Source: Candidatus Magasanikiibacteriota bacterium (GTDB taxonomy: Bacteria; Patescibacteriota; Patescibacteriia; Magasanikbacterales; GWA2-37-8). Taken from it: 64,000 nt of DNA. Positions 10,963 to 58,773 of the stretch are shown here, in pieces; positions within the stretch are counted from its first letter, which is position 1; each line of letters opens with the position of its first letter. The stretch is from the NCBI GenBank assembly GCA_963840935.1, contig CAWJAS010000001.1, positions 192,875 through 256,874 of the forward strand, in the 5' to 3' direction. Below the pieces are notes generated by a model. The model made no database searches. It saw only the letters and a program-made list of their open reading frames with translations, and was not told the DNA's origin. The position numbers and the translations under genes were made by a program.

Positions 10963-11682
10963 ATGTTATTTATTATTCTTGCTCGTCTGGATTTTCGCGA
11001 AAATGATCAGCTGATAACACTGTTCAGCCGTGAGTCGGGCAAAGAAGTCGCTCTTGCCAAAAGCGTTAAAAAAATAAACAGTAAAAATTCGGCTTTTTTG
11101 GAGCCGTTTTTTTTGGTTGAAGCGGAAATAGTATCCGGCAAAGAAATTAAACATATTTTTAAAGTTGTTGGCGTTAATGGCTTTAAAAATATTAGAAAAG
11201 ATTTTGATAAAAGTGTTTCCGCAAAAAAAATTGTTAACATTGTCAGTCGGTTAATTCCCGAAAATGGCAAGGAACCGGTGCTGTTTGATTTATTAAAACA
11301 GTGGCTTCTGTATATTGATGAATTTGATTTTAATCACAGTTTGGAATTGGGTTTTTATTGCCAGTCATTAAAAATACTAGGCATTGTTCCACAATTAAAT
11401 AAATGTGTTTATTGCGAAAAACCGGTTTCTTCAGGCGAACAAGAAAAAATTATTTTTTCGATTTAGGATGGTGGCGTAGTTTGTCGGAGTTGTGCGCCAA
11501 AGCAAAAAATACTCACGAGTGTTTGTTTACAAAAAGATGATTTGAATAATTGGGAAATATTTTTAAATTCTCCAATCAAAGAATGGCCTGTCTCAATATC
11601 AACGTCGCTTGTTCGAGCCATTGAGTTGTTTTTTGAGCATTATAGCGGTTCAAAACTTGCTAAAATTAGCCAAATAAGTTAA
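10963..11682 (+). pseudogene. recO: DNA repair protein RecO interrupted by an in-frame TAG at 11464-11466 (N part 10963..11466, C part continues in the same frame to the TAA at 11680-11682)
   Basis: N-terminal OB-fold-like region (LITLFSRESGKEVALAKSVKK...FLEPFFLVEAEIV). Zinc finger split by the stop: CVYCEKPV...IIFSI*DGGVVCRSCAPK. Combined length about 239 aa, typical of RecO. Confidence 0.7.
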
Positions 11683-15143: not shown

Positions 15144-16013
15144 ATGGCTCTTGGACGTGGCTTGGGAGCGTTAATCGCTCCGACTATTTCAGCCAAACAA
15201 AAAAAAGAAATACCGGTTCAGACCAAAAAAAGTGAATCCGGAATAATAGATAAAATTTGGTCGATTCCCATATCGGAAATTTCACCAAACGCCAAACAAC
15301 CACGGCGGTATTTTGGAATGGAAGAATTAGAAGAATTGGCCGGTTCAATAAAAAAGCATGGAATTTTACAGCCGATTTTGGTTTCCGAAAAAAAAGACGG
15401 CGGTTACGAGATTATCGCCGGTGAAAGGCGTTGGCGCGCGGCAAAGTTGGCCGGTCTGACATCTGTTCAGGCGTTGGTAAAACAAATGGCTGATTTGGAA
15501 AAATTGGAAGTGGCATTGATTGAAAATATTCAGCGCACAGAATTAAATCCAATTGAAGAAGCATTCGCTTATGAGCGTTTGATTGAAGAATTTGGTTTGA
15601 CCCAGCAAGAAGTCTCGGAAAAAGTGGGTAAAAGCCGACCGGTAATTGCCAATACTATCAGATTATTGGAATTACCGGAAGAAGCGAAAAAAGCCCTGAT
15701 TGAGAAAAAAATAAACACCGGCCAAGCGCGTGCTTTGCTCGGTTTAAAAAGCGCGAACGAACAACTGGACGCGCTGTCTTCAATGCTCGGGCAAAAAATT
15801 TCTGTCAGAGAACTTGAAAGAAAAGTTCAAAAAACAAAACCGGTTGAGTCCCTTCGGAAAGACGCTAATTTGGTATATATAGAAAATAAATTGCGAGATG
15901 CGCTCAACACAAAAGTCGATATTACAAAGAAAGGCGAAAGCGGAAAAATAATGATTGATTATTATTCCAAAGAAGATTTGGGAAGAATTATAAAAAAAAT
16001 AATCAACGACTAG
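15144..16013 (+). CDS. parB: Chromosome partitioning protein ParB/Spo0J
   Basis: ParB box GERRWRAAKLAGL and an HTH motif. Confidence 0.9.
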   Translation: MALGRGLGALIAPTISAKQKKEIPVQTKKSESGIIDKIWSIPISEISPNAKQPRRYFGMEELEELAGSIKKHGILQPILVSEKKDGGYEIIAGERRWRAAKLAGLTSVQALVKQMADLEKLEVALIENIQRTELNPIEEAFAYERLIEEFGLTQQEVSEKVGKSRPVIANTIRLLELPEEAKKALIEKKINTGQARALLGLKSANEQLDALSSMLGQKISVRELERKVQKTKPVESLRKDANLVYIENKLRDALNTKVDITKKGESGKIMIDYYSKEDLGRIIKKIIND

Positions 16014-45860: not shown

Positions 45861-48800
45861 ATGAGTAATTTTGTTCACTTGCATGTGCATAGCCATTATT
45901 CTTTGCTTGATGGCTTGCCGAAGATTAAGGAATTAGTTTCAACCGCCAAAAAGCGCGGTTTTTCGGCATTGGCTTTGACCGACCACGGCAACATGTATGG
46001 AGCGATTGAGTTTTACGAGCAGTGTCTGAAAAATGAAATAAAACCGATAATCGGCATGGAGGCCTATGTGGCGCCAGGGTCGCGATTTGAAAAAAATGGA
46101 CCGGATAATAAATATTATCATTTGGTTTTGCTTGCGCTTAATTACACCGGTTACAAAAATTTAATGAAGTTGACTTCGCTTGCCAATTTGGAAGGATTTT
46201 ATTACAAACCGCGGATGGACAAGGAGTTATTGAAACAATACAGCGAAGGGTTAGTGGCCAGCTCCGCCTGCATGGGTGGAGAAATAGCTCGGGCGATTTA
46301 AAAAGAAAATAATTATGCCAAAGCAAAAAAAGTCGCTCTTGAATATCAAGAAATTTTTGGCGTGGGTAATTTTTATTTGGAGATGATGGATTTGCCGGCG
46401 CTTGAAGGGCAAACCGAGCTTAATAATAATTTAATTAAACTGTCGGAAGAAACAAAAATTCCTTTGATCGTGACGCGCGATGTTCATTATTTGAACCCCG
46501 AGGATTCCGAGGCGCAGGATATTTTGACCTGTATTAGAGACGGCGTTACTTTGGATGACCCGAATCGGCCGACCGATGCGGGCATTGATTGTTCTTTTGC
46601 CACAGGCGAAGAAATTGCCAAGCGTTTTAAGCATTGCCCGCAAGCGGTTGAAAATACGGCCAAAATCGCCGAGCGAGTTGATTTGCAGATTGAACTTAAT
46701 AAATGGCATTTTCCGCCGATTGCATTGCCCCCCGGAAAAACGGCCGACGAACATTTGCGCGACGAAGTTTATGGGCGTTTACCCGGTTTGACCGAAATTA
46801 CCGATGAAGTAAGAAAAAGAGTTGAGTATGAGTTGGAAATTATTTCTACCAAAGGTTACTCCCCGTATTTTATTGCTGTCGCAGATTATGTGAATTACGC
46901 CAAAGACAATGGTATTATCGAAACAACTCGCGGATCAGCTGCCGGTTCCATGGTTTCATACGCCATGGGAATTGTCACGGTTAATCCAATGTTTTTTAAA
47001 CTTCCTTTTGAGAGATTTTTAAATCCGTTCAGACCGAGTCCGCCGGATATTGATACTGATTTTGCCGATGACAGACGCGACGATATGATTGCTTATGTGA
47101 CAAAAAAATACGGTGAAGACAAGGTGGCGCAAATTATCACTTTTGGTACGATGATGGCGAGAGGTGCCGTGCGCGATGTTGGGCGCGCCTTGGGTTATTC
47201 ATATTCGTTTTGCGACCAAGTGGCAAAATTGATTCCGGCCGGCGCGCAGGGGTTTCAGGTGACCATTGCCACAGCAATGGAAAAAGAAAAAGATTTGCAA
47301 AAAATGTATGATGAAAATGCCCAGGTAAAACGCCTTTTGGATTTGGCGCAAAAAATTGAAGGATGCAATCGGCATACTTCCATTCACGCCGCCGGCGTGG
47401 TAATTTCTCCAACCGCGTTAACGGATTTTACACCGGTTCAGCGTGAAACAGGTGGAGAAAGAATTGTGACACAATACGAAATGCACGCGGTGGAGGCGGC
47501 CGGTGTTTTAAAAATGGATTTTCTAGGTATTCGCAATTTATCTATTTTGGGACATGCGGTTGTAATTATAGAAAAAACAACCGGCAAAAAAGTTGATATA
47601 TTTAAAATTCCTTGGGACGATAAAAAAACCTATGACATGCTTGCCCGTGGTGAAACAGTCGGTGTGTTTCAGCTTTCCAGTTCGGGCATGACCCGTTATT
47701 TAAAAGAATTAAAACCGGCTTCCATTTTTGACATTATGGCCATGGTGGCGCTTTTTCGACCGGGCCCGATGGAAGTTATTCCCGAATACATTAACCGCCG
47801 GCATCATCCCGAAATGATTGAGTATCTGGATCCGAGAATGAAAGATTATTTGGATCAGTCGCTTGGGCTTATTGTTTATCAAGATGATGTACTTTTGACT
47901 GCCATAAATTTGGGCGGATACAATTGGGAAGAAGCGGACAAATTCAGAAAAGCGATGGGCAAAAAAATTCCCGAAGAAATGGCCAAGCAAAAAGAAAAGT
48001 TTTTTAACGGTTGTCGTGAATTCGGAAAATTGCCGGAAGTGAAAATCAATGTGCTTTGGGAACGCATCGCGCCTTTTGCCGCTTATGGTTTTAACAAAGC
48101 GCACGCTTCAAGTTATGCCGTGGTTGCCTATCAAACCGCCTATCTTAAAGCCAATTTTCCGATTCAGTATATGACGGCTATTTTGATTGCCGAGTCGGGC
48201 GATATTGATAAAGTGCCGGCTATTATCGCCGAGTGCGAAAAAATGGGGATAAAAGTTTTGCCTCCGGATGTGAATGAAAGTTTCAAAAATTTTGCCATGA
48301 TTCAAGCCGAGTCGGGCGAATCCGCGCATATTCGTTTTGGTTTGCAAGGAATAAAAAATTTGGGCGAACATATTGCCGAGGTGATTTATCGAGAAAGAAA
48401 AAATAATGGAAAATATAAAGATTTGGAAGATTTTTTGGGTCGAGTGCAGGATAAAGATTTGAATAAAAAATCATTGGAGTCACTGGTCAAATGCGGAGCG
48501 ATGGATTCTTTTGGTTATGACCGCGGTTTACTTTTGGCAAATATCGATAACTTGCTTGCTTTTGTCAGGTCAATAAATGAAAGCACAACCACCAAGCAAG
48601 ATTCATTATTTTTCGGTACGGCCATTGATTTGAATAAAAAAGTCAGATTGGATCCTGCCCATGAAGCCACGGACACAGATAAAATGAATTGGGAAAAAGA
48701 ATTGCTTGGTCTTTATGTTTCGGCCCATCCATTTTCAGAGGTTGAGCAAATTATGAGAAATGTTTTGACTCCGCTAAATGATTTGCAAAGCAAGCCAAGA

Positions 48801-49382
48801 GGCGATTGGGTGGTAGTGGGAGGAGTGATCGATAAGGCAAAAAAGAAAATTACTCGCAAAGGCGACACCATGATGTTTGTTACAATTCAGGATTTGAGCG
48901 GAAGTTTGGAATTATTGGTTTTCCCTCGCACATATGAAACAACCAAAGATGTTTGGGTTGAAGGCAGATTGGTTTGCGTGGTTGGGAAAACTTCGGAAGA
49001 AGAAGGCGATGATAAATTGTTTGTGGAAAAGGCCTATGAATTAAATGAAAATAACGCGCCCGTGATTGCCATGCAGATGAACGCCGGAGTTCAAGCAACA
49101 ACATCTTTTTCTAGGCGCGCCGCGCAAATACCAAATGATTATTATCCGTCAGAGCCGGAAAATTATTATCCGGAAACCGGGCTTTTGATTACGCTTGCGT
49201 CGGCTGAAGTCAAAGAAAAAGCGGATGCCATTAAAGAAATTTTGGAGAAATATCCGGGTGATAAGCAGGTTTATTTGGCCGTCGCGGGAAAAAGAATAAA
49301 AACATCATATTTAATTAAAATGACGGCTGATTTGGCGAATGAATTGGATGAACTTTTGGGGAAAGGGAAGTTGAAGTATTAG
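45861..49382 (+). CDS. dnaE: DNA polymerase III alpha subunit; reading frame contains an in-frame TAA at 46299-46301, and the same frame continues (track ORF 46362..49382)
   Basis: PHP N-terminus HLHVHSHYSLLDG. After the stop, the same frame reads KENNYAKAKKVALEYQEIFG...NFYLE, matching the conserved ...EYQEIFG...FYLE region of DnaE. Total about 1173 codons. Confidence 0.85.
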
Positions 49383-49424: not shown

Positions 49425-49512
49425 CGGTCGACTCCTGCGGTCGACCGCGCTTCTTCGCTCGCCCGGATATCCGCCTTCGGCGGAACCGAGCTATCCGGGC
49501 TGCGCGACGTTG
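49425..49512. repeat. GC-rich palindromic repeat element (intergenic copy) with nested hairpins
   Basis: cggtcgac-tcctgcg-gtcgaccg and cccggata[tccgcc-ttcg-ggcgga]accgagctatccggg. Shares the ATCCGCC-N4-GGCGGA hairpin and cgcttc(g)ctc motifs with the elements inside fpg and tsaD. Confidence 0.5.
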
Positions 49513-57778: not shown

Positions 57779-58096
57779 TTAACGGCGGGGTTGAGCACAT
57801 GAGGAATAGCGTCGCTTGGGCTTCTCCATGAAAGCGCAACGTTTGAGAGAACAGTAGCGGTTGGCGCGGTTCCAAACTCGGTAATTCATCCAAGGATTCG
57901 CGAACCGGCTGGCTCTCATGGTTTCAATTACCCTGACAGGAACGCACCAAACATAGTGAATATTGCCATTCGAATCAGCAATACCGCAATAATTTTCTTC
58001 CGTATTATCGCCTTCAATCGCCAGTGAACCGGAAACAGCATCGTTCGTCATGCTATTCAACGGCTCAATGAACCATTGTATTTTATCTTGGTCCAT
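57779..58096 (-). CDS. Hypothetical 105-aa basic Cys-containing protein (second gene of a two-gene cassette)
   Basis: Its ATG directly abuts the upstream gene's TAA (TAAATG) with SD AAGGAGGG. Terminator acccgc-gcaaag-gcgggt (57736-57753). Confidence 0.5.
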   Translation of the reverse strand: MDQDKIQWFIEPLNSMTNDAVSGSLAIEGDNTEENYCGIADSNGNIHYVWCVPVRVIETMRASRFANPWMNYRVWNRANRYCSLKRCAFMEKPKRRYSSCAQPRR

Positions 58097-58636
58097 TTAT
58101 CCCTCCTTGATTTTTGCCATCACGCCCAGTTCGCGAGCGATTTTTTTTAGGTTGGCCCGTTCTCTATCGGAACGAGCGGTCAAAGCCATTTTTTGATAGG
58201 CAAAACGCTTGAGAGCAAAAAAGTTGTATGGAGAAGATGAAGCCATATGGAAAAGAGTCGTCCAGTCGGAGTAAGAAGTCGCGGTGTATGTCATCATGAT
58301 GAAAGCCAACAGTTCTCGGTATTTGCCGTTGGTGTTGGATTCATAATAAAACCTGAACCAGCCGTTGAAATCAGTGATGTCTTTGGCGTCCGAAATGGAA
58401 TTTCGAAACCGCCTAACAAAACGGTCCAGTTCATTTTGCCTTTCTTCGGGCAAATAGCATCTGATTAAAAGGGCTTCTTCAAGCTCCAAATATTCGGGTA
58501 TTTCTTCTTTGCCCACGATTATATCGTAAAGCAACTGCCCTTCGCAGATGCGCTGAAGAAGGTCGGTTTTTACCTTAAAAGAAAGACTGCTCTCATCATC
58601 GATGAGAATTGAATCCAGAAGGATTTCTTGCTCCAT
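58097..58636 (-). CDS. Hypothetical 179-aa acidic protein (first gene of the cassette; start at the SD-supported ATG, M5 of the track ORF)
   Basis: SD GGGAGGG 4 nt upstream of the ATG at 58636. Minus-strand promoter TTGACA-18-TAATAT at 58669-58698. Confidence 0.5.
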   Translation of the reverse strand: MEQEILLDSILIDDESSLSFKVKTDLLQRICEGQLLYDIIVGKEEIPEYLELEEALLIRCYLPEERQNELDRFVRRFRNSISDAKDITDFNGWFRFYYESNTNGKYRELLAFIMMTYTATSYSDWTTLFHMASSSPYNFFALKRFAYQKMALTARSDRERANLKKIARELGVMAKIKEG

Positions 58637-58773
58637 CTTCCCTCCCACTTGTTGTAAAAGAACTAGTTATATTAAACATATTTTTTAATAAATGTCAATC
58701 TAAAAAAGTAAATCAAAATTTTATTATCGCGTCAATTTATATATACGATTTTATTTGTCGGTAGGCAGGCAGG

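Follow-up and report, generated by a model that had tools for sequence, protein, structure and literature searches.

An in-frame TAG codon in recO of a Candidatus Magasanikiibacteriota genome is private to one assembly and may be of technical origin

The recO gene in the 64,000-nucleotide stretch of Candidatus Magasanikiibacteriota DNA analysed here (the window, 40.8% GC) is interrupted by an in-frame TAG that, judging from the comparison with related sequences, is private to one assembly and derives from the CAG codon of the species by a single and very recent C>T change. The best explanation of this T, to which we would give about an even chance, is that it is not biological and represents a context-specific base-call or consensus error in the deposited assembly. 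If so, the organism would make a normal RecO of 239 aa with Gln168, the artefact would act systematically at the level of the reads, and two more lesions of the window, an in-frame TAA in dnaE and a 1-nt insertion in a prs-like gene, would be errors of the same kind. The technical cause is what we infer from the features of the change described below.

On the plus strand the frame reads ...CVYCEKPVSSGEQEKIIFSI, then the TAG, then DGGVVCRSCAPK..., and it continues past the stop to its closing TAA as described in the initial annotation (Table 1). The TAG does lie between the two CxxC halves of the zinc finger (codons 148/151 and 174/177), and the total of about 239 aa, taken at first sight as the length of RecO, corresponds to 239 sense positions, the same number as in every close homologue. 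With the stop masked, the product matches the RecO model TIGR00613 with 125 bits (cut-off 48.7) from residue 4 to residue 232, so that the 71 codons following the stop are part of recO and not a frame open by chance, for which a base-composition estimate gives a probability of about 1%. RecO_N (PF11967) was found with 53 bits (cut-off 27) at residues 4-70 and RecO_C (PF02565) with 45 bits in the masked product, and for codons 1-167 the values are 53 bits for PF11967 and 42-45 bits for PF02565. A profile of 21 homologues aligns with the RecO of D. radiodurans (1U5K, 4JCV) over the OB fold and the helical region and through both CxxC pairs, and the four cysteines of the zinc motif (C148, C151, C174 and C177) are all in frame and conserved in the homologues. 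Domain order, the length of 239 aa and the four-Cys motif are therefore shared with known bacterial RecO proteins (TIGR00613; D. radiodurans 1U5K/1W3S/2V1C and RecOR 4JCV), but the window gene differs from them in having the frame broken at codon 168, something seen at that place in 0 of 41 other homologue matches. Of the RecO features tested, an uninterrupted frame is the only one that the locus lacks.

The gene order spc operon-secY-adk-map-ruvX-recO-asnS, with the S10/spc ribosomal operon, is common to the window and its relatives, so that ruvX and asnS flank recO in those genomes too, and the named homologues belong to Patescibacteria, Magasanikbacteria among them. By annotation rules the deposited recO is a pseudogene, and the assignment of the locus to the RecO family is unaffected by this. 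Translated as written, it would give a product of 167 aa without two of the four zinc ligands and without the C-terminal domain. An identical 167-aa RecO is in the public record as P0005, on an NCBI/ENA contig of 770,905 bp. A split RecO produced by reinitiation was considered and rejected, the next in-frame start past the TAG being a TTG at 11542, beyond the second CxxC.

Table 1 Features of recO and of the two other interrupted genes in the window.
Feature	Position	Strand	Description
recO frame	10963-11682	+	ATG at 10963, TAA at 11680-11682; 239 sense positions; TAG at 11464-11466 is codon 168
recO codons 1-167	10963-11463	+	OB-fold N-domain, helical region and first CxxC; predicted 167-aa product
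First zinc-finger pair, Cys148-x2-Cys151	11404-11415	+	TGT...TGC; C148 and C151 invariant or nearly invariant in 21 homologues
In-frame TAG, codon 168	11464-11466	+	CAG (Gln) in same-species strains; TCC/TCT (Ser) or CCA/CCT (Pro) farther off
recO codons 169-239 and natural TAA	11467-11682	+	Second CxxC and C-terminal helices; in frame, without decay
Second zinc-finger pair, Cys174-x2-Cys177	11482-11493	+	TGT, TGT; absent from the truncated product
dnaE (Pol III alpha, 1173 codons)	45861-49382	+	In-frame TAA at 46299-46301, codon 147, context GCG ATT TAA
prs-like gene	52909-53971	-	One extra nucleotide at about 53329-53330, coding-strand context AAG ATT C TCG

The comparison with related genomes foreseen in the initial annotation was made at codon 168. 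The 90% cluster of P0005 includes the 239-aa protein P0042, which is found on 10 Logan contigs, and eight of them (L007-L014, from eight runs) were compared. They are 97-98.6% identical to the window at the nucleotide level and all eight have CAG (Gln) at this codon. The close full-length RecO homologues are all of 239 aa and at 69-83% identity have Ser or Pro at the site, in the codons listed in Table 1. Four close relatives have one or the other of these two residues, and the other aligned full-length homologues have a sense residue with the exception of one gap. By contig, TCC/TCT is found in L001 and L006, and CCN (Pro) in L005 and in the more distant L002. The most similar strain comes from run ERR15459710, in which RuvX, AsnS and a protein of 128 aa are identical to those of the window. 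There the recO gene call covers 198 codons from the contig edge, through codon 168, to a normal stop located 32 nt before asnS. Since Pro is found in L005 and L002 and the ERR15459710 strain has a sense codon, CCG>CAG>TAG on the terminal branch is the shorter history. Two of the possibilities originally raised for the TAG, a nonsense codon and a sequencing error, are in agreement with a single C>T from the CAG of the species that is absent from a near-identical strain; the third one, programmed readthrough, is not supported, as detailed below.

Exact look-ups of the truncated 167-aa RecO and of a predicted partial product of 126 aa retrieved no match, and exact look-ups of full-length RecO with Q, K, E or W at position 168 found none of these versions in the protein collection. 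In ERR12035938 as in ERR15459710, the Logan contig with the RuvX of the window ends 150 nt into recO. Both contigs break at 11084-11114, in a common 31-mer that ends in the T8 run of recO; contigs of SRR267867xx/SRR268xx traverse this run, and the break may reflect strain variants or homopolymer noise. The shared break at T8 has the look of homopolymer noise; elsewhere, Logan contigs do not systematically end at homopolymers. No relative was detected in a set with one genome per GTDB species by a scan with six RecO peptide patterns, of which several are conserved in the closest homologues. The lineage is seemingly absent from this set and occurs in JGI, ENA and Logan metagenomes.

Downstream of the stop, the comparison with the sister strain shows 2 synonymous changes specific to the window and no non-synonymous ones; Gly171, which is nearly invariant, has been retained, and no further lesions are present. 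By these counts recO appears to be free of decay, over an interval too short to weigh much or for a formal dN/dS. A separate observation concerns codon 171 (window position 11473), which is Arg (CGC) in all eight of L007-L014 and Gly in the window and in at least 90% of the homologues. Arg171 falls in the GG just ahead of the second CxxC: the "intact" sister allele is itself unusual in the zinc-finger region.

We have counted the changes along each branch over 13 kb, comparing the window with the sister strain and taking L001 for the outgroup. On the branch of the window 64 changes are synonymous, 14 conservative non-synonymous and 16 intergenic, and on that of the sister strain 71, 14 and 5, respectively; coding indels are absent over the 13 kb compared. 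By this measure the sequence of the window is otherwise clean and under purifying selection, and given such normal purifying selection elsewhere, three disruptive lesions in about 60 genes stand out. Three gene-breaking lesions in constrained sequence need a process that is blind to coding, either error or unselected mutation. The early remark that three disrupted housekeeping genes in 64 kb are unusual was a fair one, and it provided the most informative clue, through the GATT context of the lesions and the involvement of dnaE.

The in-frame TAA of dnaE was confirmed at the position first given for it. Codon 147 of dnaE is a variable position of the PHP domain: R, S, Q, H, M or K occurs there in relatives, and a gap in more remote ones. 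In the relatives of 77% identity or less the residue is Q, R, K or H. Going by these residues, CAA>TAA and AAA>TAA are both possible origins of the stop. A Logan contig of ERR12035938 has the same dnaE fragment of 146 aa followed by the remainder of the gene, and on an ERR15459710 contig with an identical upstream gene dnaE is listed as intact, with 1173 aa. For DnaE, the protein collection has no exact match to the versions with Q, K, E, L, S or Y at position 147. The annotated ORFs of the window revealed no second polymerase gene, dnaE being the only Pol III alpha there. The gene is presumably essential. If it is, a dnaE null cannot dominate a living population, and the stop would have to be either an artefact or suppressed.

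The frameshift originally ascribed to prs corresponds to a prs-like gene that changes frame at the place given in Table 1. Its homologues are of 353 aa (best identity 86%), and by alignment the extra nucleotide was placed between ...EEEFKI and SFPIIIG...; the C-terminal piece has a weak match to PF14572. No close (>90%) intact copy of this gene was found, and a search for the lesion in other runs through TsaD gave nothing, the TsaD product not being on record. The GC content around the lesion, 49% versus about 40%, is the highest of any stretch of the window. Two other places were examined as candidate lesions and discarded. At 58097-58099 the TAA-ATG joins two normally coupled genes, with AGGAGG as ribosome-binding site, and the region from 62.7 to 64 kb holds an intact infB that runs off the window. 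The two coupled ORFs (57779-58648, minus strand; 183 and 105 aa) have no Pfam match, and the AGGAGG lies inside the end of the upstream gene, in an arrangement of translational coupling. Also on the minus strand, an ORF of 361 aa without Pfam match (55656-56741) contains about 7 tandem copies of a motif of about 24 aa (GSEPLELSDGDYSDVSPEDSL...) followed by a Cys-rich C-terminus, and looks like a secreted or surface repeat protein.

All three lesions are located directly 3' of GATT (at 11459-11466, 46294-46301 and 53326-53334). In recO the context is TCG ATT TAG, and CGATT-TA is common to two of them, recO and dnaE. Positions adjoining GATT on either strand make up about 1.4% of the window, and the probability for the other two lesions to fall in the same context as the first one is about 4e-4, a post hoc figure that allows for the ambiguity in the position of the indel. 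With the C restored, recO reads GATTC, an instance of GANTC. The coincidence could be due to a base-calling problem linked to a methylation motif, or to chance. Nanopore errors tied to methylation motifs consist mainly of G>A and A>G changes (C>T as seen from the opposite strand), can be present in more than 50% of the reads and resemble SNPs (bioRxiv 10.64898/2026.01.14.699587). The lesions described here are like those artefacts in the G>A/C>T type of change, in the single short context (GATT/GATTC), in affecting a presumably essential gene and in that the genes are intact in a near-identical strain from another run. That the contig of 770,905 bp is a single piece lends some further, indirect support. 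They are unlike those artefacts in that there is no general enrichment next to GATT and that one lesion is an insertion. Differences with the sister strain adjacent to GATT are in fact not enriched (2 seen, 3 expected). A universal conversion of CGATTC to CGATTT was rejected on the grounds that CGATTCA remains 6 times in the window and that there is no enrichment among the 76 differences with T in the window and C in the sister. Furthermore, only 3 of the 118 remaining coding GATTC/GAATC sites could become stops by the same change, so that two stops exceed what a uniform GATTC-specific error rate predicts.

The shared GATT context together with the hit in dnaE favours a technical cause over a biological one, and the same context together with a near-identical strain in which recO and dnaE are intact tilts the balance to a systematic artefact at the read level. 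Several observations speak against an artefact. The dnaE stop recurs in an independent k-mer assembly (Logan) of ERR12035938, which indicates that it is the dominant allele of the read set and not a slip of polishing; an artefact must therefore be a systematic error in the reads. The sequence is otherwise clean: the T8 run of recO is in frame, and the coding sequence, about 54 kb in all, contains a single frameshift. For every nonsense change a coding-blind process should yield some 20 that are silent or missense. Besides, no real mutation gives rise to amber codons more often than C>T at CAG.

The T might be a genuine and very recent nonsense allele, which is quite possible but in our view less probable than the error. 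In that case a spontaneous C>T (CAG>TAG) would have cut RecO at residue 167, leaving a null or nearly null allele that has not been purged. The stop is one step away from the CAG of the species, the quality of the sequence is otherwise high and the truncated protein is publicly recorded; moreover, the read support of the dnaE stop in the Logan assembly indicates that lesions of this kind can be real alleles of the read set. Many bacteria can do without RecO. Classical CAG>TAG amber mutation is exemplified by the hotspots of lacI at methylated cytosines, and the recO change, if it exists in the DNA of the organism, would be like it: the initial C of one Gln codon is replaced by T, in a single step and in one lineage only. 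Against a nonsense allele, the stop in dnaE and the GATT context of all three lesions would need a separate explanation, the near-identical strain has neither of the two stops, and other genes of repair and recombination (recG, radA, fpg, dprA and topA) are intact in the window. The lack of relaxed constraint downstream also speaks against it, with the little weight that so short an interval allows.

It is also conceivable, but unlikely, that the stop is real and decoded, either by a Gln-suppressor tRNA (CUA/UUA) encoded elsewhere in the 0.77-Mb genome or by near-cognate tRNA-Gln after AUU. Gln would then be restored at codon 168 of recO, and possibly at codon 147 of dnaE, giving full-length proteins at a reduced level. 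Such decoding would account for the dnaE stop as a majority allele and fits the Gln that the species has at the recO site and some relatives have at the dnaE site; both stops are at variable positions that tolerate other residues, both follow an AUU codon and neither has a strong +4U. Among near-cognate tRNAs, tRNA-Gln is the chief one to read UAG and UAA (PMC5289835), and there is a report of bacterial in-frame stops kept under purifying selection (PMC7918605). However, the stop is conserved in no relative or sister strain, these having Gln, Ser, Pro or another sense residue at the site apart from one gap. Neither stop is followed by a stimulatory RNA structure (MFE z against shuffled sequences of -0.02 for recO and -0.64 for dnaE). 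The five tRNAs of the window, Leu(CAA), Val(CAC), Arg(GCG), Met(CAT) and Glu(TTC), are all ordinary, and within the 64 kb no CUA/UUA suppressor tRNA, tRNA-Pyl or pyl genes were detected, with nothing further from Rfam. With 25 of the 49 TAA stops, TAA-A outnumbers every other natural terminator context here, so it is not obviously leaky, and basal readthrough of UAA, the lowest of the three stops (PMC5289835), seems too low to supply DnaE. The frameshift in the prs-like gene would be left unexplained. That the recO TAG and the dnaE TAA are both decoded as Gln in a viable strain, by an ochre-type tRNA-Gln (UUA) or by leaky termination after AUU, is a still more doubtful proposition. As for programmed readthrough or recoding of the recO TAG, the sequence of the window and its relatives does not appear to support either of them.

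The stop could alternatively be older than the CAG, by a path TCG (Ser) > TAG > CAG (Gln) with repair in the sister strains, following the stop-intermediate double-substitution route of Belinky et al. (PMC7918605). We regard this as very improbable. The first position of the codon is T in the window, L001 and L006, and parsimony against L001 makes the C derived in the sister, but with CCN (Pro) in L005 and L002 the path CCG>CAG>TAG is equally short and has no stop intermediate, and the sense codon of the closest strain would require two independent repairs. The recO stop resembles those studied by Belinky et al. 2021 (PMC7918605) in being an in-frame stop in a constrained gene that looks otherwise functional. 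Their argument is based on a conserved stop plus a low dN/dS, whereas the one described here is found in one assembly and is too recent for dN/dS.

The least credible reading of all is a dedicated recoding, either pyrrolysine at UAG, since TAG is the Pyl codon, or a code in which TAG (and TAA) is sense, as in some phages, for which TAG>Gln codes are described in bioRxiv 10.1101/2021.08.26.457843. In a census of 60 curated genes with 18,129 codons, the natural stops were TAA in 49, TAG in 8 and TGA in 3, and the only in-frame stops were the recO TAG and the dnaE TAA, against 540 CAA/CAG codons. TAG is thus a genuine terminator elsewhere, as had been pointed out for parB (15144-16013) and fpg (49510-50487), and the ends of the eight genes that finish in it are conserved in orthologues: asnS ends in TAG in every relative, relA does so in the window and L001, and parB has TAG where L001 has TAA. 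A reassigned codon would be frequent within genes and unused as terminator, and TAG is neither. At the site the orthologues carry a standard residue, Gln, Ser or Pro, no downstream element was seen, and pyl genes and tRNA-Pyl are missing from the window. The same superphylum includes the Gracilibacteria/Absconditabacteria, with their UGA>Gly code. In these and in the phage TAG>Gln codes the reassigned codon is found in many genes and dropped as terminator; the window is like them in having Gln in relatives at the site of the stop, but unlike them in that TAG terminates 8 of 60 genes and is in frame once. From these data, a change of code appears effectively refuted, and it and Pyl can be considered excluded for practical purposes.

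At face value the recO stop would suggest loss of RecO or UAG readthrough in Patescibacteria. From the comparisons presented here, the species appears to have a normal recO and the stop to be peculiar to one deposited assembly, where it looks like a common amber mutation or an artefact of the consensus. Its practical use is as a quality flag, being part of a public genome of 0.77 Mb with at least three gene-breaking lesions in 64 kb, all of them beside GATT, and inferences of gene loss or pseudogenes drawn from this assembly (recO, dnaE, prs) should not be trusted without checks at the level of the reads. If the stops are real, dnaE would be an interesting case of natural suppression in a reduced genome. 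If both were decoded as Gln, suppression would be sustaining an essential replication gene, perhaps as an early step towards the reassignment of a stop codon.
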